From Paraspadella gotoi (lineage: Eukaryota; Animalia; Chaetognatha), in NCBI GenBank assembly GCA_051294375.1, contig CM119264.1, positions 19,227,590 through 19,291,589 on the forward strand: a stretch of DNA of 64,000 nt. The letters are read 5' to 3'. Shown here in pieces: positions 305 to 58,874 of the stretch. The notes under the pieces were generated by a model that saw only the letters and a program-made list of their open reading frames with translations, did no database searches and was not told where the DNA came from. How positions within the stretch are numbered: the first letter of the stretch is position 1; each line of letters begins with the position of its first letter. Both the position numbers and the translations under genes were made by a program.

Positions 305-568
305 TTTGGCACAGCCGGTTTGCTTGTGATTTCCCCTTGGGATGGGGTATCTCACGTTGGCTTTGGGGGCTTCCGACCCTCAGTGCGCCTCCAGTCACTG
401 GCGTGGTTACCCTAGGGACGGTATCGCTTTGCCAACGGTAGAGGAAAGTCATTAGGGGTTACTGTGGAGTGTGGATGGAAACACGTACTGGGATGGTGTG
501 TTCCCCTCTGATCCAATGGTATTTGGTGAACGATGGTGGATGCGAGGCAGTGTGATATACCTGCCACA
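305..568 (-). mobile_element. Twister-bearing solo-LTR-like short element, family A (mirror image of 13310-13570)
   Basis: The minus strand reads TGTGGC...GCCAAA. It aligns by eye with 48075-48274 and 51843-52028. Flanks cgtc/cgaa (gtcg/gacg in the mirror copy) are compatible with a degenerate 4-bp TSD. Confidence 0.7.
355..437 (-). ncRNA. Twister ribozyme-like motif, P5 permutation, family A (general-base G position reads U)
   Basis: Minus strand: CGTTGGC AAA GCGA TA CCGT CCCTAGGG T^AA CCAC GC CAGTGAC..G(T)CACTG A GGG TCGG AAGC CCC CAAA GCCAACG. P5 is 7 bp; P3, P4, T2 (GC/GC) and T1 (CGG/CCG) can all form. Predicted cleavage between 409 and 408. Confidence 0.65.
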
Positions 569-8033: not shown

Positions 8034-39627
<31,594 letters not shown>

Positions 39628-39856
39628 GTGAGTCTACTTTTTTTTAACTCATAAACTTATTATTTTTGCGATGTTCTCTTTGGCTATCGACTCGTGACCA
39701 TTTGAAAACTGCCGCTATAAAAAATATTATGATAATTGATTTTGGTTTGAGTTCGTAATGAGCAAAAAAATATGAGGATTAAAATTTCAAATAAAGGGAA
39801 ATTTTTTTTCTGAAATAAAAGAGGAAATTCGTGGCTCTGTTGAGCAATCATAATCT

Positions 39857-40090
39857 TGTGGCGAATCCTAAATTCGCCTCCCGTATAGCTTGGTGAAACT
39901 CAGCTCGTTCATCAACCGTGATTTCCGGGTTCAATCCCATGACGCTCGCGCTGGTTAAGGTGAGATGGTGTCGCCATAAACACGCCAGTGACATGAGGTG
40001 GTCCCTGCGGGTCCAAAGCCCTGAACGTCAACTGTCGGGATATCTGCCTTCACACCTCGGGCGTTCACACATGGTCTCTGGTGTCGCATA
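39857..40090 (+). mobile_element. Twister-bearing short element, family B
   Basis: Starts TGTGGCGA and ends near GTCGCATA. Same architecture as family A (5' hairpin, twister, 3' hairpin). TSD not resolved. Confidence 0.65.
39940..40030 (+). ncRNA. Twister self-cleaving ribozyme, P5 permutation, family B; catalytic nucleotides apparently intact
   Basis: TGACG(P5)..GTGA(P2') GA TGGT(T1') GTCGCCA T^AA ACAC(P2) GC(T2) CAGTGAC..GTCCCTG(P3) C GGG(P4) TCCA(T1) AA GC(T2') CCT(P4') GAA CGTCA(P5'). Order and spacing match the recalled twister core. Predicted cleavage 39977/39978. Confidence 0.75.
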
Positions 40091-43000
40091 TGCGCATCTA
40101 AATAAGTATTATTAGAAAGCCGTTAAAAATATTATACCTGTCTATTAACTATTCTTAGAACTAATGTAGTTATATTTCTATACCTTGTAACTTTGACTGG
40201 GCCGCATATTTTGTTTTTAAGTACCTGTCGTCAAAATGTCAAAATCTCTTCACGTTTTCCGTTGGTGATTTTTTTCTAGCGGTGCGTTTCAAATAGTCAC
40301 CCAGTATACCCAATACCCATTCTTCGTCTCATTCCAGCGACGACTTTGATTTCTGCCCGAAAAGAATCACTTTTTCACAACAAAAATCAGAAATAATCGG
40401 CGACGCAGCCAACAGAGACGGGCTTGACGTCGCCTCCGACGCTAATATCGGCGCTCACGAAGAGAACGGCGCCGAGTCATTTGATACCATCGGCGGCTCC
40501 TTCACGGGAAATTCGAGCGCCAGCGGCGTCCTGTCGCCATCGCCAGCTCCTCAGACTGATTTGAAGCGGTTCTTGAGTCATCAAATGTGATGTTTTGGAT
40601 GATGCGTCCGCCATGATCCAAAACTAGTATGAGAGGCTTTAGGTCTATTTTTTTGCTTTTATTGAATGTTGGATGAGAGATGATTTCAGTTGCTCTATTT
40701 TTTAATAGTTTTTTTGTTCATGCTTTTTTTTTATAATAAATCTTTCTGTACATATTGGTAGGTTGTTAACAAATTTAAATCTATTGAATATCCAACCTTT
40801 CGTTGCTTGGGAAAACTTTTTCCTTATTTTTAATTGTTTTTACTTTCCATTTACAACATCAACCGATTAACTCGTACATGTTTTTATATTTTGAAAGCTC
40901 ATAAAGTGTTATTTACCGATTTAATTAATATTTGTTTAATTGTTCGATGACAACTTGACCCTAATTTCTGTGTTTTTAAATTTGTTCGTATTCGTACACA
41001 TAATTACCGGGTTTTTCTCTTTTTTATCATCCTGTTAGTTAGATAAATGCAAAAACATTGAAATTATTATTAGCAAGAATAGCAAAAATCAAAATCTGAG
41101 TAACTTAACCAACTGTTTTTCAATTGTACCAACTGAAAGGCTGTTTTAAAATGAATGGGTAAAAATCAAAGAAAGTTGATAAAAGTTAGTTTTTTTGAAG
41201 TTTGAAAAAAAGTTGGTGGAATTAATCCGAAGAAAGAACAAAGAAACTTACGAGGTGAAAAAGGAAGCGATGGCTGCAGAATGAAAAAGAAATCGAAAAA
41301 AGAAGCAAACGAAAGTAAATTAAAGGAGAAGATTTAATCGAATAATTTTTTATTAAAATCAATGATACCAATCAATAAAATAATATTGTTTAAACAGGTG
41401 TAAAACATCTGGATGAAAACTGTCTATGAATTGATTGGAAGTTGAAATGAGATTGATAGGAAGGAGAGGAGTGGAAAAGAAATGGAACCGAGCCAAGCGT
41501 GAAATGTGAAAGTGTGAAAGAAGGAATCCGATCCGGCGCCAATCGAGTAAAGGATCAAAATCGAAATTTGAGAAAAGAGTTGGTATAAAAAATAAAGAAT
41601 TAATAAAAAAATAAAATACCGATAAAAATTTCGACGCATATGAAAAAAATATAACTTATTATTGATTGTACCATTTTCAAATCACATTCAAATAAAAAAA
41701 AAAAATTAAAAAGTGTCGATATGAAATCCTAAATAAATAAAAAAAATACAATAAGAAACAATACTCTTCTAAACCGCTTCAAAAATAAAAATTTTCATTT
41801 TATCTTCAGCTTTTCTCTCTCTCTCTCTCTCTTGCTCTCTTCTTCCTTCAAACTTTCCTCCCTATCTCCCTCCCAGAGTTTCTGCTGATGCGACTGAAAA
41901 AATTTGGTTGCAAAAAAAGTAATAGAAGGTAATGGGAAATAGAAAAAAGTGGAGGGGAGAGAGAGAGAGTTAGAGTTGATTGTAAAATTAAGTAGGTTGG
42001 GAGGACAAAGGAAATAGCACAAGGCAGTAAAAAGAAAATAAAAGGGAGAAAGAGATGAGAGAGAGAGAGAGAGAGAGAGCGAGAATAAATATGTTAAAAA
42101 GGATATAGGTTAAGCTCAGAAGGACAGAAAGAGTTCGAAAGACCATTGCTAATTTGTTTCCTTTTATTCTGCCGTCATTGACGCTGAGGATGTCGAGGAG
42201 ACGCTCACACAAAGTAGTTTCCACCGGAAGTTTTCCGTCGTCTTTTTTCTTTCATCGTTCATTAAAATTCATGTTAAAAATCCAATTTTAATCTCTTTTA
42301 ATTTTAATCTCATTTCTATAACCAGATGAGGGAATATAAAATTCAAATTATCCGTTTACCACCTAACGCATGTGTTATTTTCTGCCACTTCTAAATTCGT
42401 AAATTATTTTTTTTTATCTATATCTGACTCTCTTTTTTTTTCCTTTTTTTAAACTTTTTTTTCTTTTCCTCTCCTCTCCTCTCCTCTCCTCTCCTCTCCT
42501 CTTCTCTCCTCCACTTTTATTACTCTTCATCTTCTTTCATCTTCTCCCTTCCAATATCCTTTTCCTCTCATCCAATTTTCCTCCTTTGCTCTCTTCTCCA
42601 ACCAACGTGACCATCTGAGCAGAATAACTTGTCACAGTTCTTTGCGCCTTCTGCTCGACCAATCGAGAGACAGAAACGGTGAACGTTGCTACGAAACCAA
42701 GTAAAATTTTTTATCACCTCTAAGTGACGGCTCGACACGAAGGATACAACGAAATAAAATAATACTTTTTTAACAATCCTTTATCTATATATATTGTACG
42801 TTGTACGACAGTGTTGTTCCAACAATACATACATACCATAAAATAAACATTTATAACTATATATATTGCAAGATATATTTTCCGCAATGTTCGCACAAAG
42901 ACACCCAACTCTCAAAACGAAAGGGAAAAAAGGAAGAGAGAGAAAAAAGAAAACCGGAATCATAAATTTGTTTCCGACGAACGCGAGACGAATCGATGAA

Positions 43001-43529
43001 CAAAAGAGACGCGACATCGATAGTTGTTGTCATCGTCGTTGTTGTCGTCGTCGTCGACTCCCTGCACGTCGACGTCGAAGTTGAAAAACGGAAGTAATCA
43101 TCGATAATTTTGTTTTGATTTTTATTTATGTCGCGTTGTTTGTCTAACAAGGGAAAGAGAGGTAGAAATAGTGAAATGGAAATTCATAGACATACTCTCC
43201 TCAAAAGTCGAGCCGCTGCGATCGATCATGGGCTACGCATTTGACGTCCTTGTTTTGTCAAAAATGTTGTTCCCGTTGCAAAAATTTAAAACATAAACTA
43301 AAAATATATATTCTTCTGATATGATTAGTCATTTGCTCTTGATGCCATTGGCTTGTTAAATTCAGGTCTCCAGGTCTTTACGGTATAGAAATCAATCGGT
43401 AAACTTTTACTACATATAGAAACGTAGGTTTAATTATTTATACTATTAACGAAAATACTCAAGGTTCGTCTCCTTTTCTCTCATGATCCGTCTACTTCTT
43501 ATTCTTCCTTTTCTTGCTTTTTCCTTAAA

Positions 43530-46500
43530 CTACTCTTCCTCCATGTAAATAAATCGTTTGACCGACGCAGGTAAATCGCGCCACCGGAAGTCAGCTTTCT
43601 TCGTCGCCAGCGTCCGACCCAAGTAACGTCGCAGAGAGATGCGGCAAAGTTGCTGCAGAGGTTGCGGCTGAAAGCAGAATCGATGCAGCCAACAGAGACT
43701 CGAATTTCGCTGCCGAGCGTCGTTTTGGTCGACATCTATTCGTTCTTTCTCTGCGACATCTTCTTCTTCCTCCTCCTTCCCTTCCACCGCCGCCCATAAT
43801 CGGTTAGTCACGTCTCCGCCAACTCGACTTCCCGCCAAAAGCAGCAACTTGCAACTCGTCCAAGAGAATCCGTCCATCGCTAGTCTGGAAGCAAAAGGTT
43901 GGCTAAAATTTACCATAAGAATATTTCATGGGGTGAAAAGAATTCAAATGAATATACATATAATACATACTGAAAGTAATAAATATTAAAAAATGTTATG
44001 CCTTTGTTTCTCCTATTTTTTAATGTATTCGAGCTCAAGAGATACAATAATCACACACACACACACCTCTCTCTCTCTATACATATTGTTGGACCATTCC
44101 CAGGTAAAACTTTCCCTTCTAATATTTTTAACCGCTTTTTTCACTTTTAAAGCCTACATCTATATCTCTGTATCTCTTGTAAAAGAATTTCTTTTCACAG
44201 CCCTTACCAGCCACCTTTTAGGCTTCTTGGTCCCAATCACACATTCCCTTAAACTATTCCAAGTTGCAACTCAATGGACCCGGGTAACCTTGTAACCACG
44301 TGACCTGAGCGGCGTCTCTCCAAAAGCGTTGACGACGTTGGGGTCAGCGCCGGCGCGAAGGAGAAGGCGCGTCCCGGCGTCGAATTTGTGTCGCGTCGAA
44401 ACGTGGAGGGCGCTGGTTTTGTCGGTGTCCTGAAGCCGACGTCAACAGTGTTGTTCCAATAATACATACATAAATAATCCAAATAATCATTTGGATCACC
44501 TTATCTGTGATTTTCTTTCTCCACCACAACTATACTCCAATCTTAAGAAAAAAAAAATCATAAAGTTTTTTTTATAGTTTTGAACTACTTAAATAAAAAT
44601 AGTACGTAAGTCTAGTGAAGTACTTTTATCATGAATTCAGGTAGCACATGCTCATTGTTGTCATTGCCTCTCTCTCGTTTCCCATCTTTCCCCAATTCTC
44701 TCATGTTTCCTTTGGTTATTTCCTCTGTTTGTCTTTAATCTTTTTCGATGTTGAAAGAAAGAGGGGAACCATTTCAAGCCACTCTCGGTTTTCCTCGGAG
44801 ATTTTAATTCACACTGTGAGTCATGCGTAACATTATATATATATTGCATGGCCTCGTTTTCAACCATTCTAGTTAATTTCAATATTTGACGTGTCGAGCT
44901 CGACTTGCTCTTTTCTCTTTCATCCTTTCTCACTGTTATCAGCTTCAAAAGCAGAACCCACATGATTGTTTTCCTCTCGACTGCCAACAAAAGAACGGAT
45001 GACAAAGTTATCTCTCTCCTCTCTTTGTACCCCGTTCTCTTTTCTCTCCCTTTTTTATCTCAATTCCAATTGTTTTCCAAATAATTTTCCCCTCCATTCC
45101 CGACGCGACCAGAGGGCGTCTGAAGTAAACAAAAGACACTATCGTCGCGTTTTTCTTTTCAATCTTCTTTTTTTTTCATTTCGAAAATTGGATCGTTTCC
45201 AAACAATCTTTAATGCTTTTTCATGCCATTCTCTCGATTATCAAGCTCCTCAATTACTCGCGTTCCCTCGTTTTCTCTCCCTCTTCCTTTCCCCCGTCAT
45301 TCGGTTCGTTGGGAAATTGATTCGCGGCTGCGCGAGCGATAAAAATGAACGATTCCTTCGCCGCTGGGGATCGTAGCGGCACCGATCGAGACGAGCTTCA
45401 TCGATGTTCTTTTTTTTTTTATTTCCTTTTTGTTTTGCGCCGAAAGCCATCGAAATCAGGGGATTTGAAACCGAGGAAATCAGGGAAATTTTTGGCGCGA
45501 CCTCCCACGTCTTTTTCTTTATAACTAATTTAGGTATCTCATCTTATGTATTTTCCTTTCTCTTTCGTTTCCTAACAAGCTTCATTCTTTGAATTTTTTT
45601 CAAAATCTGATTACTTTTTAAAACTTTCAAATCATTTTTTTTAACATTCTCAATTATTCGTATCCCTTTTTCTCGATCTTTGCTTACTTCATTCACGTTT
45701 TCTTTTCAATTGCTCATTTATTCCATCGATCACTATCTTCTCTATTTATGTAGTAATGTTATAGTAAGTACAAAGCCTTGTCTCTTTCCAAATTTCCCTT
45801 AACCCTCCACTTTTTTTTTCAATTAACTTCAGCAGCTGACCTTTTCAACCAAACTCTCTAAGCCAAATTCACGTTTTTTAACACTAACGTTTTCACCAGC
45901 TTCGCCGACCGCATTTAAATTCATCACTGAATATTATTACGTATAGCCAAGATATCATTTACTCGTCACCCAACTCCAACGGCTTGAACTCTTTTACATA
46001 CTCGGATCTTACCTTATTCCGCCCTCCGTTGTTTTTATCGTTTTTTTTCCCGATCTCCATTACCCAAGTCACTTTCCTTCCTTCCTTCGTTCGCCTGATT
46101 CACTATCCTTCCTTCATCCTTCCGCCATTTTACCTACCATTTCTTCTTTTCCTTTTAAATCCATCCATGATGCTTTTCCTTGATTTTTTATCACCATCTT
46201 CCGTCTCCCACCGATAACTATTTCTTCTTCCCGTTTCTGTATTTCTCCATCTGCTGTCTAATTTCCGTTTCCTTCTTCGCCCTTTTCCTCTTTCTAATTC
46301 TCCCAACATCCAGTCACCGCTCTCTCACGTTCCCCGCCCCCTTTTTGCGTCAATTTGCGCACACAACGCCGTTCACTTTCAAGAGCCTCTCGGTGTTAAA
46401 AGTTCATCGCCGTTGCTTCCTTTTCGAAGCAGAGGGGGGAATCTCCTTTCAAAACTTTCTCTTCCGCCCCCTCAAACCTTCTTCGTTCCCTCTACCATCA

Positions 46501-46681: not shown

Positions 46682-49600
46682 CTATCTCCTCTCTTTCACT
46701 CGCACAGACTCTCTCATCCCCTCTTTGTGGAGAGATGAAGAAAGAAAAGGCATCTTGTTCGCTTTATAGACTTTTTTCTTCTCGGACGCGAAAAACAAAC
46801 ATAAACAAACAGGGAGGAAAGAAGGAGGAATAGGAGTGGGATATTTGATCTTTTTTTAGTTTTCTCTTTCTTCTGCCGCCGAAAAAGAATCGTGAGAAAT
46901 CATTGTTATCGGATGCGAAAAAAGTGACGCGGCACGGATTCATTAATACAAAATGTTTCTTTTTCCTCATTTTGCAAGACTCCGTACTTGTTTGCTTTTG
47001 CCTTTGACGGATTGTCACCTTCGTAACTGTAAATCTTGGTCAGCCGCTTAACGGTTATTTTCCCTTATTGTTATTAACCATTAAATCAGTGCCTTTTCCT
47101 CACCACGACGTTTGGGTCGGCGACTCCTCTTCTCAGTAGGACCTCGCAGCAGGCCACGTCCTTCAACGACATCGCATGCAGCAGCGGGTTGCGGCCGCAG
47201 TCGGCGTCGGCGCCCTCGTCGAGAAGAAGCTCCATCACGTCGCAGTGACCTTCGTTGAGGGCTTTGAGGAGGGGAGAGCTGATCATGGAACCTCGGAGAA
47301 AGAGAAGAATAAACGTTCTAGATTTTTTCATGACATTTCACAATCAAAAACAACGTTTTACTCAAAATTAAGCCAAGCAATTCAATTTTTTAATATCAAT
47401 TTGAATATTATTTTTAAAATGATTTTTTAAACGACATAAAATTTAATTGAAATATGTATGGCAGCAACAACCAATTTGAAAAAAAAAAACAACAAAAGAA
47501 CTAATATCAGAACTAAATAAAATCGAAAACAAACAATTTTTTTCTTAATTTAGTGTTATTTTAAAAGGCTCTAAAAAACTTATAAATACAATGCTCTAAA
47601 CCAAAAAAACTGGTTCAGCTTCGAAACGAATGCAGTAATAGGCAAAATTTGGTATTTAGATTCTCACCATCTTTAATAATAAAATAGAAGAAGGGCATAA
47701 ATCGAATAAAATTGTACATTAGTTTCATACGTTGATGTCTCACTCTCTCTCAAAAATTAAAGTAAATAGTAAGATTATTAACCTTTTTTTTTCCAATTCT
47801 AGACGGGTAAAGCTTTATTCGCCCAAGTTTTTCCAATTATTTTCAAATGCTTATTTTTCCTACCGTCTGTTCGTTTTTTTTTTCCTTTCACTAGGACGAG
47901 CTCGCTTTCCCACTTGGTTCCTCCTTCCCCTTTTCCTCAATCCTCATGCATCCCAACGATAATCACACCAATTTTTCTTTCTCTTTGCGAAGCAAGAAAG
48001 AACTCTTTAAAAACTACAGTTTCACTGGTAAAGGAAAGAACCTTCTTCAAAAATACATTTTAAAACTAAAAGATTAGGGCAACAACCGGGTTGCCTGTAA
48101 TGCCCTTTGGGATGGGGCATCTCACTTTGGGTTTAGGGGCTTCCGACCCTCAGTGACGCCTCACTGGCGCGGTTACCCTAGGACGATATCGCTTTGCCAA
48201 CACAGAGGGAAGTCTTTAGGACTGTGGATGGAACGCAACGCTTGGGATGATGGCGGTGTGAATATATTGCCACAAGATCCTCTTTTCAATTACAAACTAC
48301 ATTTTATTTTTTTTTTGTCAAGGATTTAACAAATTGATAAGCTAATAATTTTACTCACATGAAAAAAAAAGGTTGACAGCCACATCCGCAGAAAATACCT
48401 GTGCAGTAGGCCCCTGTATTTTTGAGGCTGGCGCCTCGTTTGATCAAAAGTTCGCAAGTTTCTCGATGGCCGAATCCCGCGGCGACATAGAGAGGCGTTC
48501 TTCCGAGGCAATCGAGCTGATCTACATCCACGCCGCAATCCAAGAAGACCTCTACAGCATGGGGATGTTGCACATTCTCGTGTATGATATCGGGTTTGCG
48601 CCGAAGGTTGGGCTGAAAAAAAAGGAAGTTTAAGCATGGGTAGATAGGATGGATGGCCGTAAACAAAGTCTCAAGGCATAGGAAGTCAGGAAGATACGTA
48701 GGCATTTTTTAAGGCAAATTTTGAACTTGATTCGCTCCGATTCTCTTGTATCATCTTCTTTGGTTTCTTAATTCATCGTATAACATTTTGGAGCCAAACC
48801 ATCGTTTGGTTGAGTCTTCAATCATCAGGAACCTGCCTCGTTTTATTTTCTGTATTCACTTGAATGTTATAAATGATACATAAGCTTTTAAAAAGATTCA
48901 AACGATTCAAACGTTCCATTGAGCTTCTTGAAATTTTATCACCGAAATACCACCAAAAAAAAGTAAAACGTTGAAACAAATATCAATAACTACTTTTTGG
49001 TGGTTTTATAGACGCAATTACATTAATATTACCAGATATAAAATAAAAAGCAAAAAACGAAAATCGATTTTAAAGACGAAGTCGAAAGTCACGAAGTCTG
49101 CGCAATGCGGAATTGTGAAGGAAAGAGATTAAGGCTGAGAGATGGTGAGAGTGGATTTTCCAAATATGACAGTAGGTCGAATGATGATTAGAAGAACGAG
49201 GAAAAGGTTAAGGTGGGTCAAGGGATGAAAAGAGAGAAGACCGACGAGTGATTAAAGGAAAAAAGGAAGAAGAAAAATCGAAAGAAAACGCGTAAAAAGA
49301 ATTTTGGCGAAAATGGTGAGAATATTCCGCGCCCTTCACCCGCAGAGAATCACGGACAATTCATTCTCACGAAGAAAGTTTGAATTTTGTTTTGGTTTCA
49401 AGTTTTTTCGATAGTTTTTTATTTTTATTTTTAGCGGAATTTTTTCCTTTTTTGAACAACGATAGGGAAATTTTATTAATTTTATTAAAAAAGTAAAAAT
49501 ATATTGAGTTCATTGCGCCGTGCCGAAAATAATATAATAACATTAACGACTGAAAAAAATAAATTTTAGAAATGTAATTTGACGAACGCATCATGCGTAA

Positions 49601-52600
49601 TTAATTGGCAGGAAAAAGACACAAGGAACAGTTTTTGGAGGCGGAAAAACAAGAAGGACGACGACGACATCACGGGGACATGACGACAATGAAACTGTGG
49701 AAACGACGTCATTATCTCTGATTGTAGATGCAGAGCCAGTGAAACATGGCGAAACAAACCGCCCATTTTCTCGTTCTGGATAGGTTTGGAAAAAACACAA
49801 AAGCTAAACAAAACGAGAGACAAAAAAAAACAAAAAAAAATAAAGAGAGAGAGAGAGAGCGTTTTCGGGACGATTTACTACCGTGTACTTAGTGTTAATT
49901 TGTCTTGTTTCCAACAAAATCGCTTTCTTCCTGGATGCAAAACGCTTCAAGAAACGTTTCCACCTCCATTCGTCATTTAAAGGTGCATAAATTTATAAAA
50001 TATAAAGTTTTTGTTCAACATCCGAAAACCAAAGCGGAGGCAACGAAATAACGGAAATTAGAAAACAAAGGGAAGAGAAACATTGTGAAAAGAAAAAGAA
50101 AAAAAGGCGTCATTCGTCTTTCAATGGAAACTTAAGCCGACGACGTCTCATCCCGTTTGTGGTTCCACCTGGATCTTCTTCACTTCCTTTCTTTTTTTTT
50201 GGGGGGGGGGGGTTGGGGGCGAATTTGGTAAGTGGGGAAATGAGGTCGGGGAAAGTGAACTTGGTAGCGAGAATCCTATTTTATCCTCTTCATTTTCCGT
50301 CTTTTCATTCATTCTTTTTCACTCTCCCTTTTTTTCTTCTCTAATTCACCGTCAAAATTGAGACGTGAAAACGGAATTCGATTTTCGGCTGAAAAGTGAC
50401 ATCGAAGACTTGTTTGTTTTTTCAAAAGTCATCTTAAATTTAAATTGGTGAGGCTCAGAAACTTTTTTACCATTTTTAACCAGTTTACTTTTATGGAAGC
50501 AGTTTGCGCCTAAGTTTCTGAAAAAAAAATTGGGTCTATCTTTTCAAAATGTGTTTACTTACATTTATATTTCCATCTAACGATTCCCTTCTCAGTTCTA
50601 TCGTCTTTTGCAGACTTATCGAAAGCAATTCCTTACATCTATCAATATTCTTCACATCCACAATCCTTTCACTTCACGCAACCAACTCGACATTTCACCC
50701 TGGTCCAACGGTTTTCGCCCCGATTATTGGATTATCTCGGGCTCCGTCACCTCACAATCTGCTTTCGAATCCGTCAAAGCGTCGAAAGAAGGGTGAAAGT
50801 CAAAGAAGCGGCTCGAAGGGCGAGGTTCCAATTCGTTAAGGCGAACAAACCGATCTTACCTCCGCGCCTTTGTCCAGCATCTCCACCAGCAGATCCACGT
50901 GACCGCCGCCAGCAGCGTAGCACAGCGGATCGCGTCCCGTCCTGTCGAAGAGCGTGACGTCCGCGCCGCGTTCGAGTAACAACCGCGCCGTGTCGAGGTG
51001 ACCTTGATAGATGGCGCTGTGAAGAGGGTAGAAGCTGCCGCCGTCGCCGCCGACGAAGCGGCCGAAGTCGACGTGGCAACCGCTGGATGGGCGAAAGGAG
51101 GAAAACGAGGAGAATAAGGCGGAGGCGAAATGGTAACTGGCTCGGGATGGACGGCGAGTTCTCTCTTGTATTCATTTCTCTTTCTTTCCCCTTTTTTTTC
51201 CTTGCTTCATTTCTCCATTTCTTAATTTCCCATCCCAGTCGTGCACATTTTCTATTTTTCTTCTCTTCCACAATTTTCCACTCAATTTCACTTCATATGA
51301 TTCAAATTATGCAAAATTTGGTAATAATAGATTAAAATAGATCTACTCTACATTCTAACCCATCCAACAGTCTGCGACACAAATTAGTGAATCCATTGGT
51401 GGCGGCGTAGTAGAGTGGATGCCATCCTTCGCGGTCGCAGATTTGGGGATCGGCCATCAAGTCGAGCAAGGCCACGGCTAAAAGTTGATATAGATATAGA
51501 TGATATAGATGATTTTAAAATGAAACAGTTTCACCGAGAATAATTTTAAGTAATGGTTGACTTTAGGAAACGGCACCTGTGTCCTCGTGCTTGTAATAGA
51601 TGGCGTTGTGTAAGGGATAACTGCCGTCTCCTCTTTGATTGACGTCGGCGCCGCGAGAGACGAGGAATCGGCAAATGTCTGTATGCCCCCCGTTGGCGGC
51701 GCAAAGCAGCGGTGTTGCTCCGTTGACTGTACGAGCGGAGACATCCATCTCCTCCTAGAATTTATACCGTAGTAATTTGGTCACTAAGTTATGTTAGAAA
51801 ATGAGCTGGAGAGGCGTGATGAACCGTTTTTTTACATATATGCTCCCATTGGCTCAGTGGGAGAACACATCCCAAACGTTGTGTTCCATTCCACAGTCCT
51901 AACGACTTCCCTCTCCGAGGCTAACCGCGCCAGTGACAGGAGGCGTCACTGTGAGTCGGAAGCCCCCAAAGCCAACAGTGAGATGCACCATCTCAATGGG
52001 CATCTCAGGCAACCCAACTGTAGCCATAATACTAAAATATTTCCAATTGAAAACTTTAAACATGAAACTTTTTTAAAGAAATTTCTTTATTAATGTGTTC
52101 TTCTCAACAAAGAAAGTAATTTGTCCTTTTCGGTTCAAATTTGAATGAACCTGGAAGGCATTCAAGAGCGCGACGACGACTTTCAACTGTCCCGATTGAC
52201 AGGCCAGAGTCAACGGTGAATGCTCCTCCATCGTTCGATTCACGTCGATGCCTGACGTCCAAATCGCGTCCAACGTCGCCTCAACGTCGCCTAACAGTTT
52301 TTATTTTGTAAATATTTTTTTACGGTCGAGTGATTAAAAAAGGTTAAAAAAAGAAATACAATTCGTTATGTCTTATGGGCTTGACTTTGAAAAATGTTTA
52401 GAAGATTTGTTTTTATTTTATCGCAAAATGGACACCGGTTATTTCGAAGCATTGCTTTTTTCCAGCTTTGATATCATTATACTAAGCTATACATAGTTTT
52501 ACAAAAAAATTATTTTCTTTTCTCACCGTCCATAATGGCGCAAGTGATTACAGTTTCTTCCTCCGTCGGCTCAGCCACAAATTCTTCCCATACAAACGAA

Positions 52601-54118: not shown

Positions 54119-57100
54119 CTACAAATAGGGCAGCGCCCCTGGCCCAACCACCACCTCTTTCTTGCCATATATCAAAAATTTTTCCTGCATGCTTATGATT
54201 CTTTCGGACGATTCCCTGAACTTTTCCTCCTCCCCTTTGTCCAGTTCCAGTGGGTACCAGCCTCTGATTCCCTTGCGGTTGATGTAGCACGGTAGGCTCA
54301 AGAAAACATTTTTTCTTATTCCGAAAAAATCCCTAAAAAAAAGGGCTATTATATAACTTAAAGGGTAAACGCTGAACGCGTTTTCTCCAGTCACCTTTTT
54401 GCCAGCCTTCAAAAAATCTGAACTAGTATATAAATTGTAAAGTGGAAAGTGCATTGATAGGTAAAATAAGAAAAATGCAATTCGTAAATCCTCAAGAATA
54501 AATTCATTGGCTTAGTTATTACTGTTTTATCATTTACAGAAGTTTTAACTTAAAAAAATTTTTACCTCGAATACGCCGCGACTGTGTGAACACGTGGTCC
54601 TTCGATTTCATTTTCAAAAATGTGTTCAATAATATCTTTTATAACGAGTCCAACGCTCCAAACGTAAAACCTCCCCGTGTCCTTTAACCAAGCGTCCCTA
54701 AAAACGACGAAAAATAAGATTACAAAAACGATCAGTCTTTGTTTCTCCCCGGTGGTTATACCGAGAAGAAAATGGTGATTGTAAGGGTGTAGACGACATG
54801 CTTCTATGCTGAAGCAAGTTACAAGTAAAATTTAGCGAGAGTTCAAAAATCAAAGAGCAATGCCATTCTCAGTCATCAACAAAGCATTCCAAAAAATAGG
54901 CTCATAACTTTCGGTATAACCATAGCAAGGTTTTTACATGATCTGATGCTTTGAAAGCGTGCGGGTTGCGACAAATGAAAATAAAACACCTTTGAAGGAA
55001 AAAAATAAGGTGCTTTAATTGAAATAAATATAATTTGTTTTTACATGTGCGCGGCTGGTAGTAGAAAAGTTATTATTATGAATGATAAGAATTCGGACTG
55101 TTAAGTTTTAGTAAAAATGACGCGAGCATATTAAAAAAATATTTAGTGCTATGTTAACTGTCATCAGGGTAATTAATCGTTATTTTACCCTATTTGGTCT
55201 TATTCCGTAGTTAACAGAGTGAAACTTATCTTTTTCTCAATTTTGGGTTTTCTCTTTTTGACGTACGAAAAGTTGCACAAATTTGTATCAAACAACTAAT
55301 GAATGAAAAAGGCAACTATGGTATGAGCGTCTTTCTCAGGAACTAACATAACAAACTAACAAACCAACAAACGAATGAACGAACTAACGAACAACGATGA
55401 AAAAAAGAACGAAGAAACAAATTTGAGAACTGAAACAAAAATATACTAAAAATGAAAATAAAATAAAAATAAAAAAAGAAGAAGAAAGTAAAGAGCGAAT
55501 GAACGAAATTGCGAAATCTTACGACGAACAAAAATTTTCACATATCATAATTTAGAATTTATGTTTATTTTTGGTCTTAAAAATATTTGCAAGTTAGTGG
55601 TTTGTCTATCCTAATCGAATCTTAAAGTGCCATTAAAAGCGCGGCAATGGAATCAAATCAATGAACGAAAATTTTCTTTGCAAAGAACAAAAAGTTTCAT
55701 GCGAATGAAATCTGTTTCAAATATAAACCGGAAAACAGAAAATTTATTAAATAAAAAAAACTAGATACATGCTGTTTAAAATTTATGAGTTCGATCGTAA
55801 CTTTGTTTTTGTGTGTCTCTAAATCATAAAATTACAACACAAAATGAATTATTCACGGCATACATTTGAAACTTTAAAATTTAAATAAACGCCGGCGTTA
55901 AAAGCTTAAAACGACACTTTTAGGCGCGTTTAGCAACTGAGACGATTGGAAAGTTATTATATTATTATTTATTTTATTTATTAAAATTGTCTTGAATTAT
56001 CGTTAAACTTCCGATCGCGTTTTGCTGGAAAAATGAAATTGAGGAATTGAAAAAAATTATACTAGACCCTTGAGAGTAGAAATTTTAAAACGCGTTCGAA
56101 AGCGAGAAAGAGAGAAACGTCTTAGTAGATGAGAAGAGTTTTTTGAAAATCGGAGATTTTTGTCGCGATCGCGTGCAACTTCTGCTCCTCCGCCTCCTCG
56201 AGGCTGATTGTGGTCCAACCCTTGACCCCCAGACGATTCAGGGTCATCGGGGTCGAGAGGAACACCATCTCTTTGATTCCGTAAAGATCCTTCGCGAAGC
56301 TACGGAAGGGAAGGTGGTTTGGGGAAAGAAAATTCGTCTTGTTTTCTTTTCTTTTCGTGAACCGCCGATTAAACGTTAACGATTCGTGCCGTTTTTTAAA
56401 GCTAAGTATTAATCTTACAATATAAAACTGAATCGACGTAGAACTTTAATTGGTAAGCCATTTTAACATTTTATTACACAAAAATTCCTTTTATTTTAAC
56501 AGACTCGGTAGCTATATATTTGTATTTAATTATTTATGAAATTGGTACAACCAATAAAAAAATATATAAGGGAGAGGTCCATAAAATAGTTTTACATGCC
56601 ACCTGGTGAGCGTGAAATTCTCTCCACCGAATCCGTCGGTGAAAATGGAGTAAATGACGTGAGCCAGTGACATTCCGACGGCCAACACGAAACCTTTCTT
56701 CCAGCTCGTCACAACTTGGTTTCTTCACAAAGGAAAATATAAAAATAGTAGCAATAAAATAGAAATGAAATTTTGTTCTTTCTTGTTGTAATCAAAAATC
56801 ATTGTGAAATTTATTTCGATTCTTTGCGTTTTTTCATTTTAAACCATTTTGCCGTTGTTGTAAATCCATAATAAACTGCCTAATGAAAAATCAAATATTT
56901 GATATATACAACGATTTCTCTCGCCAAGAAATAAAACGGTTACTATTATTAGGATTGACATTTAATATTAATAGTTTATAATCAAAATTATTTTTCGTCG
57001 TAGAGAGAACTCAATTCCCGAGAAGCACGAATTGACGTAAAGAGGATCTCTCAGACAACAAAATTAGCTAAGTAGTGACATATAAAGGGGGCACGAAACA

Positions 57101-58874
57101 TAAAAAGCACTGTTCGATGCCTGAGCACATGATTAAGATTTTTATCTCTAATGATTTGTTTTTAAAACGAAATTAAAACTAAAAAGATGTACATAAAAAT
57201 AATAAGCCTTTTTTTTTATTTCCTCATCCGTTTTTAACTCCGTCGATAAAAGTGAACGTAAAAGTTTCAATCTTTTCTTCTACTTCAACTTTCGCTTTTC
57301 ACCAGTCACAAGTTGATAAGTTGATTGCCCTTTTGTTTTGCCAGTCTTCATTCCGCTCGTTATTTGCGTTTTCTTTTTACCATCATTCCTTCATTTCTTT
57401 TAACAGTCATCACTGACACTCACTGACACTCCCCACATTCCGCGCGCACATTATCTTGCTTGTGAAAGCAATCAACTGTTAATACTTAGCTCAACTAGAA
57501 GTAAGATAGACAATACGGAATACTGTTTCAATGCTCTTATTGCATTTTAAAAATTTAATAATGAATAAGAACGCGGCAGAAATGTTTATGTCCTCTTGAA
57601 AACTTCCAAGAGGTATGTCGCTCTGTTAGTAATCATCTTTTTTAGAATTGAATGTCAATATTTCAGATAAATATGGATAAAAAAAATACGCGATGTTCAT
57701 AATCAGCGAAGAAAGTCGCCTCGCCCTTTTTCTTATCCATAGTTATTCCTTCTTTTCTAAAGGCAAACTACGCTGTTTTCAAAACAATTCGAAGATAACG
57801 GAACCGCCTTCCGTTCGAAGTTTATAGTAAAAAAATTAACCAACATTCATCGGCCCACGATTGAGTAGCGCAATCGATGCATGAATCGCCACATCAGCAG
57901 CCCATAGTCATCTCCCGAAGCACAATATCTTCCAGAAGTGAATCGTATCACTATATTGCGCAACAATTTTGATCTTTTTTTTTTCAACAGACACCACAAC
58001 CTAATCCTAGGCTGTTCCCGCTACTCACTCTTCCTTCATAGCGTCCACAATCTCGTTCCACCCTCCGTGATCTTGTGGTGTTCCGAGATGGGGGTTCATT
58101 TTCTTGAAAGAGGTTCCGTTGAGTGTGACGGACATCCAGGCGGGGAAGGGATCCGAGCATTCGCCGATCATGAAACCCTAAAGAGAGTTTTCAAAAACGC
58201 CATGCTATGGCCCAGATAATTTATTTTTTCCGATTAAGCTATCTATATCGACAGGAAACTCGACGATGCACTCCATCACGTGTTTGACAAAACAGCAAAA
58301 CAGCAAAACCGAGCCAACCAACCAAACAAAAACCAAAACAAAAACCAAAACAGCAAAAACAAGACTCAAGAGCGACGACCAGCTCACGTCGATGATCATA
58401 TCGTCGTTGGCTCCCAAGTTCTCACGAATCTTCGTCCGAAATCTAGAGGTGGCCAGGTTCGTTCCGATCCCGATCACACGCGATGTGGAGATGCCCGCGA
58501 TCTTCCACAGCATGTAGCACGCGACTTCGTTTGGCTGCGACGTCACGATGAAAATCGCTTCCGGCGAATTCTTCACGAGTTCCGGGATTAGGCGTCGGTA
58601 GTTCTGATGGAAAGTAATGGAACCAAATATTAAAATATAGAATAAACCATTACAATGAAAATATTTGAATATTTATATTCAAAATTAAACGGAATAGAAT
58701 AGAATAGGATAAATAAATATTAAATAAATAAAATTGAGTAGAATAAAATGAAAAGGAATAAAATTTAATAGAATACAATGGGCTCAGTAGAATGAAGCAA
58801 AATAGAATACGATGGCAAATAATGATGAAAAACAACTTCTCCCACAGTAGCCGAAACCAACATTGAATCCATTA

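Follow-up and report, generated by a model that had tools for sequence, protein, structure and literature searches.

We analyzed a 64,000-nucleotide (nt) stretch of the genome of the chaetognath Paraspadella gotoi (GenBank assembly GCA_051294375.1, contig CM119264.1, positions 19,227,590 to 19,291,589 of the forward strand), which we will call the window. Within it, a repeat of about 230 bases, which resembles a short interspersed nuclear element (SINE) and is present in many copies, appears to carry the core of a permuted type-P5 twister ribozyme. In the copy that we will call B1, the core lies at 39960-40023 on the forward strand, and the predicted cut is between U39977 and A39978. We consider this reading probable, although some way from certain. 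Judged by its sequence, the motif is a real member of the twister class in a new setting, a SINE, and its cleavage is predicted.

The twister core in copy B1

In the published order of parts, a twister consists of P1, UAA, P2, GC, P3, P4, GUCCCAAGC, P4, a linker, P2, GAGGG, and P1 (Table 1 of PMC8501958). The type-P5 form corresponds to RF02684 in Rfam (clan CL00120), and PMC5408937 and PMC6765202 describe permutations of the class. GAGGG provides the catalytic guanine, which is G45 in the rice twister and G48 in env22 (PMC5408937). To assign this position in B1, we used the part table of PMC8501958 together with G45 and A46 of PMC5408937 and PMC5113685.

All of the parts of a type-P5 twister can be read in B1 (Table 1). 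B1 has 13 fixed twister letters, as well as the pseudoknots T1 and T2 and the helices P2 and P4, with the correct order and spacing. The three pairs of T1 are C40013-G39968, C40014-G39967, and A40015-U39966. P2 has three of its four pairs (A.A at 39963/39980), and the loop L4 follows the pattern G-U-NNN-A-A-G-C-C (G40011, U, CCA, AA, GC, C40020), closed by a P4 of at least 3 base pairs (bp; CGG/CUG). The rice twister tolerates no substitution at G13, G30, A46, or G48, and it accepts other Watson-Crick pairs in T1 (PMC5113685). The four intolerant positions correspond to G39984, G40018, A39965, and G39967 in B1, and all four letters are present. The rice numbering that we used to place the B1 positions agrees with PMC5408937 and PMC5113685.

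The core of B1 is not an assembly error, since short-read contigs from two sequencing runs (X1 and X2) are identical to B1 over 39881-39993 and over 39966-40043.

A preliminary description of this DNA, made from its letters, had proposed a type-P5 permuted twister here. The order of the parts and the presence of all fixed nucleotides bear this out, and the strings that it named for B1 are all found at 39940-40030. It had also remarked on a minimal P1 and an imperfect P2, and these lie within the tolerance of published assays (PMC5408937, PMC11662667). Deletion of P1 left an almost wild-type rate in vitro (PMC5408937), and in a survey of about 2,600 natural twisters, 94% were active and imperfections in P1, P2, and P4 did not lower cleavage (PMC11662667).

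The core is part of a high-copy, SINE-like element

We placed contigs from the runs on positions 39700-40250 at 90% likeness or above, and in a second pass at 80% likeness or above with a reporting threshold of 2%. Contigs from eight DNA-like runs and from one possibly RNA run cover the element. At 90% likeness, we placed 997 contigs from X1, 938 from X2, 535 from X5, and 84 from X9; across passes, the number for X1 was 997-1230. The summed contig depth in X1 was 73-89 in the flanks (contigs at 90% likeness or above), 150,000-360,000 at 39852-39908, 17,000-37,000 at 39909-39965, about 175,000-182,000 at 39966-40003, and 19,000-39,000 at 40004-40041. The maximum, up to 400,000, lies in the first 52 positions of the element, which we will call the head module. 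Summed contig depth is a poor measure of copy number, but the contrast between the element and its flanks is still three to four orders of magnitude.

The ends of the element can be seen in the same contigs. There are 45-54 loose contig ends just before 39856/39857, with an agreement of about 0.42, which corresponds to many different flanks. Unrelated flanks of this kind are the pattern expected of many insertions with a common 5' end. On the other side, the family extends beyond 40040 (the consensus of the loose ends has an agreement of 0.80-0.85). Indels abound in the window from 40044 onwards, so the 3' end, which we place near TGGTTGCC after the paralogous copy B2 and copies of a second family, A (see below), is an approximation. 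A possible ATAA(A)TC repeat flanks B1 and B2, in flanks that are rich in indels.

Like a SINE, the element is short, non-coding, dispersed, and high-copy, and it has defined ends. We conclude that it is a high-copy SINE-like repeat and not a feature of the neighboring gene. The preliminary description had placed the motif just 3' of the last exon that it could define for a membrane-protein gene, in sense orientation; the motif is not specific to that gene and belongs to the repeat. B1 probably has no function for that gene.

Behind 39908, 71-86 loose ends share one different continuation (agreement 0.71-0.79), so the head module is common to another repeat family. It appears that SINE families in this genome are built from modules. 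The head module opens with a hairpin, GGCGAAT...ATTCGCC. By eye, the element contains strings that resemble box A and box B of a promoter for RNA polymerase III (pol III), and copy A4 has such a string as well (TGGCTCAGTGG, also by eye). As for an origin of the head from a transfer RNA (tRNA), ARAGORN found 0 tRNAs, and a search against Rfam with E values up to 10 did not match any tRNA.

On the 3' side of the twister module there is another conserved hairpin, at about 40037-40070, at 13520-13550, and at 48095-48125 on the reverse strand. It is the 6-bp GAUGCC...GGCAUC in the consensus of the B family, AUGCCC...GGGCAU in A3, and ACCCC...GGGG in A2. This hairpin is a possible recognition stem for the reverse transcriptase of a partner element.

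B1 compared with the majority of its family

For this comparison we used contigs at least 80% alike, and the figures are from run X1. Among the rows listed, B1 differs from the family majority at 12 positions between 39912 and 40010, and five of these are in the core. Three of the five are in helices. A to U at 39963 (41,791 of 42,636 in depth, or 98%) replaces A.A by U-A and gives a full 4-bp P2. C to A at 40004 (72,606 of 74,540, or 97%) completes the 7 bp of P3, which is perfect in family A too. G to A at 40009 (51,115 of 53,921, or 95%) changes the G.U of P4 to A-U. The other two are C to G at 39974 (98%), in the loop of P1, and A to G at 39996, in the loop of P3. Thus, among the rows listed, every majority difference in a helix repairs an imperfection of B1, and no fixed nucleotide is touched.

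Two parts of the motif do not vary or hardly vary among these rows. None of the rows listed is a variant at 39976-39992 (UAAACACGCCAGUGAC), where the depth is above 200,000. About 98% of the depth has the predicted catalytic G: its sole listed variant is G to A (2.2%), with no G to U or G to C.

The preliminary description had called the motif apparently intact, which cannot be upheld for B1. B1 is about 12% diverged from the majority, three of the 12 differences weaken P2, P3, and P4, and the lowest-energy fold is a competitor (discussed below). Given the three weakened helices and the strong competing fold, B1 is probably slow or inactive.

Family A and covariation

A pattern search located the consensus strings that had been proposed for a second family at four places in the window (A1 to A4 in Table 1). 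Family A reads UAA-CC(A/G)C-GC-P3-A-GGG-U-CGG-AAGC-CCC, with GCGA-UA-CCG-U upstream, and is closed by UUGGC/GCCAA. All four copies have the UAA. P2 has two or three of its four pairs in family A: A1 and A2 have an A.C mismatch, and CGC:GCG is found in A3 only. A3 also has one G.U pair in T1, and its P3 is shorter yet paired.

The flanks of A1 and A2 are the same, but inverted, which makes the two a single insertion; the inverted duplication, 180-640 on the reverse strand and 13240-13700 on the forward strand, includes the family A element plus flanks. B1 and B2 are duplicates too. In the assembly, the loop of B2 reads GGGTCAAAGCCC, without one C, as had been noted; this difference may be real or assembly noise. 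The copies therefore represent four independent insertions: B, A1/A2, A3, and A4. Families A and B align along the whole element, so they are diverged relatives.

We counted pairs in five of the six copies, omitting B2, which MAFFT placed out of register in P3-P4. In these five, 87.2% of 109 cells are paired, as compared to 22-40% when the partners are slid. All three pairs of T1 are paired in every row, and two of the three are changed on both sides between A and B. There are four such pairs in total: two in T1, one in P2, and the outer pair of P4. The family majority adds a further both-sided change, as its A-U at 40009/40022 corresponds to G-C in family A. T2 (GC:GC) is invariant in all five rows, so it provides no evidence from covariation.

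The preliminary description had claimed covariation in T1, P2, and P5. The claim for T1 holds. The P2 contrast of CAC:GUG with CGC:GCG is found in A3, but not in A1 or A2, with their mismatch, or in A4, whose upstream half is absent. The claim for P5 fails, as the P5 pairings of A and B occupy non-homologous columns. Overall, the covariation is suggestive: the claim is right in kind and thin in numbers.

Table 1. Coordinates of the element, its further copies, and the parts of the core in B1
Feature	Position in window	Strand	Comment
SINE-like element, copy B1 (whole, ~230 nt)	39857..40087	+	5' end sharp, 3' end approximate
Head module	39857..39908	+	Common to another, more abundant repeat family
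Box A-like and box B-like (GGTTCAATCCC) strings	39886-39895 and 39928-39938	+	By eye; possible tRNA-derived pol III promoter
UGACG (5' strand of P5 in the preliminary description)	39940-39944	+	Pairs with 40026-40030 in B1 only
CGCUGGU, part of the 15-nt linker between UGACG and GUGA	39949-39955	+	Can pair with GCCAGUG, 39984-39990
Twister core, type-P5 permuted (predicted)	39960-40023	+	64-base motif; all parts read in B1
P2, 3' strand (GUGA)	39960-39963	+	A39963 opposite A39980, a mismatch
L1, G-A	39964-39965	+	G39964, predicted catalytic guanine; A39965 partners A40016
T1, 5' strand (UGG)	39966-39968	+	Partners C40013, C40014, A40015
P1 remnant (UGUCGCCA)	39969-39976	+	At most 2 bp (U39969-A39976, G39970-C39975), 4-nt loop
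U^AA	39977-39979	+	Predicted scissile bond U39977/A39978; directly 5' of P2
P2, 5' strand (ACAC)	39980-39983	+	Read from sequence
T2 dinucleotide (GC)	39984-39985	+	Pairs with G40018-C40019
P3 hairpin (CAGUGAC/GUCCCUG)	39986-40007	+	One mismatch, U39989.C40004
P4 (CGGG/CCUG)	40008-40011 / 40020-40023	+	Wobble G40009.U40022
L4: U40012, CCA (T1, 40013-40015), A40016, A40017, G40018-C40019 (T2)	Within 40008-40023	+	
AA, then CGUCA (3' strand of P5 in the preliminary description)	CGUCA at 40026-40030	+	Read from sequence
B2	32306..32400	+	Paralog of B1 in 7.5-kb tandem duplication; one loop C fewer, extra Ts
A1 (family A)	About 357..435	-	Same insertion as A2, in inverted duplication
A2 (family A)	13440..13518	+	U at catalytic-G position, A.C mismatch in P2, CCUAGG in P1 region
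A3 (family A)	48124..48200	-	In an intron of ankyrin/SOCS-box gene, sense orientation
A4 (family A)	51915..51975	+	Without the upstream half (P5a, 3' strand of P2, T1 strand)

A proposed mechanism and role

We propose that the tRNA-like head would supply a pol III promoter for the RNA, or that the RNA would come from read-through. L4 would pair with UGG (T1) and GC (T2), which would dock it onto L1. G39964 and A39978 would then be placed at the scissile phosphate, and cleavage would yield a 2',3'-cyclic phosphate and a 5'-OH. The likeliest role would be to cut multimers or read-through products down to single units, which might then form circles, as has been proposed for the hammerheads of schistosome SINE-like elements and of retrozymes. 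The predicted cut is internal, 121 nt from the 5' end of the element, so a cut monomer could not template new copies. This role would therefore need multimers or circles.

Observations that weigh against a twister, and alternative explanations

A number of observations count against the twister reading. Some of them concern model searches. With the gathering cut-offs of Rfam, we found no matches in the whole window. At relaxed thresholds, and in favor of a twister, twister-P1 ranked first among 4227 families for three independent insertions, with 12.5 bits for B1 (E = 8.9), 15.2 bits for A2 (E = 0.91), and 14.1 bits for A3 (E = 1.7). The cut-off is 67.2 bits, so the check with Infernal and Rfam twister models that the preliminary description had put forward came out negative. 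Also, these alignments span the P3-P4 half only, the P5 model of Rfam gave no reported match, and B2 had no match at all. (The permuted order, a T1 other than CCC:GGG, and a near-absent P1 would each cost score.)

These low scores would be expected if the resemblance to twisters were due to chance, with the GC-rich, hairpin-rich body of a SINE happening to fit a loose twister pattern. The thermodynamic z-scores of the copies, -1.63 to +0.44, do not single out the motif and are consistent with this too. In contrast, 13 fixed letters are combined with T1, T2, P2, and P4 in the correct order and spacing; families A and B differ by both-sided pair changes; and three majority letters repair exactly the three imperfect pairs of B1. 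Furthermore, a descriptor of a permuted twister, which was built from published parts, matches B1 (and A3, if the G is relaxed) and had no matches in 300 simulated 128-kb sequences (38.4 Mb). The descriptor was composed after the motif had been seen, and a loose two-block pattern did give 118 chance matches in metagenomes. Taken together, these comparisons make chance hard to credit.

The UAA and the upstream half are both missing from every one of the 118 metagenomic loci, which lie in GC-rich DNA and match by chance; the two that were flagged by a loose TAA test do not fit. A scan of viral sequences gave no matches. A scan of prokaryotic genomes gave a single match, which is also due to chance.

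Other reservations concern the comparisons between copies. Shuffling gave at least as many both-sided changes in 15 of 500 trials. The covariation comes from four independent insertions in two lineages, and is essentially one contrast of A with B. For L4 and P5b, we take the family state from the lack of any variant of 10% or more among contigs at least 90% alike, and the runs may include the sample behind the assembly. Multimers or circles, which the proposed role requires, were not seen in the window.

P5 is not conserved either. The preliminary description had drawn UGACG/CGUCA as a closing stem. This stem exists in B1, but position 39941 is C in 95% of the family depth, so the stem is broken unless its partner changes as well. 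In this topology the chain is unbroken through P2, P1, P3, and P4, so a P5 stem is not needed.

Folding predictions are also unfavorable, at least for B1. (The folding programs that we used score no pseudoknots.) The minimum free energy (MFE) structure of B1, at -29.6 kcal/mol (z = -0.24), is a competitor fold and not a twister, whose nested helices have -11.4 to -12.3 kcal/mol. In the competitor, CGCUGGU in the linker pairs with GCCAGUG and covers T2 and the start of P3, with which this pairing competes, and AUGGU:GCCAU hides T1. Family A has an equivalent competitor (UUGGC with GCCAG): the twister helices and the MFE are at -13.9 and -27.4 kcal/mol in A2 and at -15.9 and -23.3 kcal/mol in A3. 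By our own estimate, the pseudoknots might add roughly 9-10 kcal/mol; this would make up the difference in family A, but B1 would still fall short. We also inserted the 12 majority letters and folded the core (39956-40024). The twister helices then have -16.4 kcal/mol, versus an MFE of -20.3 kcal/mol. The majority MFE structure contains P3 and P4 exactly, and G39974 removes one pair of the AUGGU:GCCAU competitor. The register of P2 is shifted by two, and this shifted P2 buries the catalytic G and T2. We predict that the master sequence of the family can plausibly fold as a twister, and that B1 probably cannot do so efficiently.

In family A, the catalytic position itself is changed. A1, A2, and A3 have U-A instead of G-A, and these represent both of the independent copies that keep the region. 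In the published survey, changing the general base from G to U lowered mean cleavage from 0.76 to 0.34 (PMC11662667), so by analogy family A would cleave weakly at best.

The U in family A and the strong competitor folds in both families raise another explanation: the module could be a twister-derived fold that no longer cuts, captured from an autonomous retroelement as a handle for its reverse transcriptase, much as SINEs imitate the tails of LINEs. A Penelope-like element of the Naiad type would be the likeliest partner, and catalysis would be irrelevant or selected against. Genomic copies keep both halves of the element, so their template would have to be uncut RNA, and a published Naiad consensus has a similar permuted twister-like run (PMC8557442, discussed below). 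However, a mere handle needs neither the catalytic G, which the B family keeps at about 98%, nor the UAA, which is invariant among the rows listed. No reverse transcriptase or endonuclease was found in 149 reading frames of the window (18 + 131), which leaves no partner frame here for comparison, and the conserved hairpin 3' of the twister could be the handle instead. We regard a non-cutting handle as unlikely, but it deserves to be taken seriously.

The last of the unfavorable points is the P1 stem, which has at most 2 bp. Adding both of these pairs raises the energy of the B1 twister helices from -12.3 to -11.4 kcal/mol. Such a short hairpin would make sense if the ribozyme were active only as paired copies, with a self-complementary P1 region that forms an intermolecular P1, between two RNAs or between two units of a tandem transcript, and swaps the halves, as in the small hammerheads of Penelope-like elements. 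The P1 regions of family A are in fact palindromic (CCUAGG in A2 and A3, CCCUAGGG in A1), B1 has a near-palindrome (AUGGUGUCGCCAU), and the Naiad consensus in the supplement of PMC8557442 has two 8-nt palindromes at the equivalent place. But the majority P1 region of the B family, with G39974, is not palindromic. Also, twisters without P1 cleave at near wild-type rates (PMC5408937), so a dimer is not needed, and there are no tandem copies of the element in the 64-kb window. It seems quite improbable that activity depends on pairing of copies.

Locus context and assembly

B2 and B1 lie in a tandem segmental duplication, 30400-37900 and 38100-45400, with a period of about 7.4-7.7 kb. Its blocks are 73-100% alike, with many homopolymer indels. 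The duplication also carries the gene for a single-pass membrane protein (open reading frames 30405-31265 and 38101-38964) and long (GA)n microsatellites in both copies (29890-30040, 34470-34620, 37700-37750, and 42000-42110). The duplication may be real, or it may be two haplotypes joined in tandem by a noisy long-read assembly. At 40044-40119, a contig of single-copy depth in X1 and X2 shows 12 indels and five substitutions relative to the window, and it is exact over 39966-40043; the assembly is locally unpolished at 40044-40119.

Matches to Pfam point to an animal gene context. One ASB-like gene has exons for a SOCS box and ankyrin repeats at 43533-43925, 48358-48708, and 50839-51171, all on the reverse strand. 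Exons with weak matches to lactate/malate dehydrogenase domains lie at 56125-56445 and 58208-58672, also on the reverse strand (Ldh_1_C with E = 8e-4 and Ldh_1_N with E = 3e-5, below the Pfam cut-offs).

Significance

The twister class was reportedly first described by Roth and colleagues in 2014. Twisters are known in many animals, but the only ones whose biological role has been established are of type P1 and lie at the 5' ends of RTE elements. What differs here is that the ribozyme is permuted, internal, and carried by a SINE. Our literature search found no paper linking twisters with SINEs. If our reading is correct, then non-autonomous retroelements have recruited the twister class, as they have hammerheads; the models in general use miss thousands of copies of such ribozymes in each genome; and there is a lead to RNA processing in Penelope-like elements that lack hammerheads. 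The copies are also natural variants that could be used at the bench: a family in which U replaces the catalytic G, T1 as CCA:UGG or CGG:CCG, and a series from individual copy to consensus.

Comparison with known systems

Type-P5 twisters share with this motif the P2 3' strand, G-A, the T1 strand, a closed P1, U^AA, P2, GC, P3, and P4 with L4, along with the fixed nucleotides and both pseudoknots. They differ in that T1 is CCC:GGG instead of CCA:UGG or CGG:CCG. The motif described here has a P1 of at most 2 bp and no conserved P5, scores 12.5-15.2 bits against 67.2, and lies in a eukaryotic SINE.

Hammerheads are found in the pseudo-LTRs (long terminal repeats) of Penelope-like elements and in animal retrozymes (PMC7761336, 10.64898/2026.07.22.740005), and retrozymes, for which the paradox of a template that is cut has also been described, form circles (PMC7761336). 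As in those systems, the ribozyme proposed here is in the terminal region of a retroelement or of a non-autonomous derivative, and it shares a self-complementary P1 region with the dimer-dependent small hammerheads. None of the reading frames of Penelope-like elements are present in the window, and the connection to Naiads that we suggest is indirect.

Naiads are described as lacking canonical hammerheads (Craig et al., PMC8557442). The word "twister" is absent from the main text of that paper. In its supplement, the consensus just before Naiad-2_Movir resembles a permuted twister close to the 3' end, where it has GA-GUG, then a pair of 8-nt palindromes in the place of P1, AA-AGCA-GC, and CCGG-U-CAC-AAGCC-CGG, with no P3. 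By eye, its UGCU and AGCA strands fit as P2. The loop strings of the window (GGGTCGGAAGCCC, GGGTCCAAAGCCC, and GTCGGAAGC) have no matches in the Naiad consensus file of the supplement, whose wrapping at 70 letters could hide some. GTCCAAAGC has two matches in it, and neither is in a twister-like setting. It was a different loop variant that led to the twister-like run described above. By analogy, a Naiad is a plausible partner for these SINEs.

This leads to a broader and tentative idea, which we hold to be less likely than not: permuted twisters that are invisible to Rfam could be the missing ribozyme of many animal retroelements. Naiad-type elements, and the SINEs that ride on them, would use a type-P5 twister with a self-complementary P1 in place of the hammerhead of other Penelope-like elements and retrozymes, and copies acting in pairs would yield RNAs of unit length, which might be circular. 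The window would then show the SINE branch of this system, with thousands of copies.

The SINE-like elements of schistosomes carry hammerheads, and multimeric transcripts have been invoked to solve the paradox of a template that is cut (PMC6765202). As described there, those elements are similar to ours in being short, non-coding, and high-copy, with an apparent pol III promoter and an internal ribozyme whose cut separates the promoter from the body. In P. gotoi, the ribozyme would instead be of the twister class, the pol III boxes were identified by eye, and there are no tandem copies in the window.

The closest twisters in a retroelement are the variants at the 5' end of the Perere-3 (RTE) non-LTR retrotransposons of Schistosoma mansoni (PMC8501958; PMC7761336 contains a similar remark on RTE elements). 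Both systems have a twister-class motif in a high-copy animal retroelement and a proposed role in processing the element's own RNA. The Perere-3 twisters, as described in PMC8501958, are type P1 and lie at the very 5' end, so that the whole ribozyme stays with the element after the cut. The twister proposed here is permuted and internal to a non-coding element of about 230 nt, and its predicted cut would split the element.

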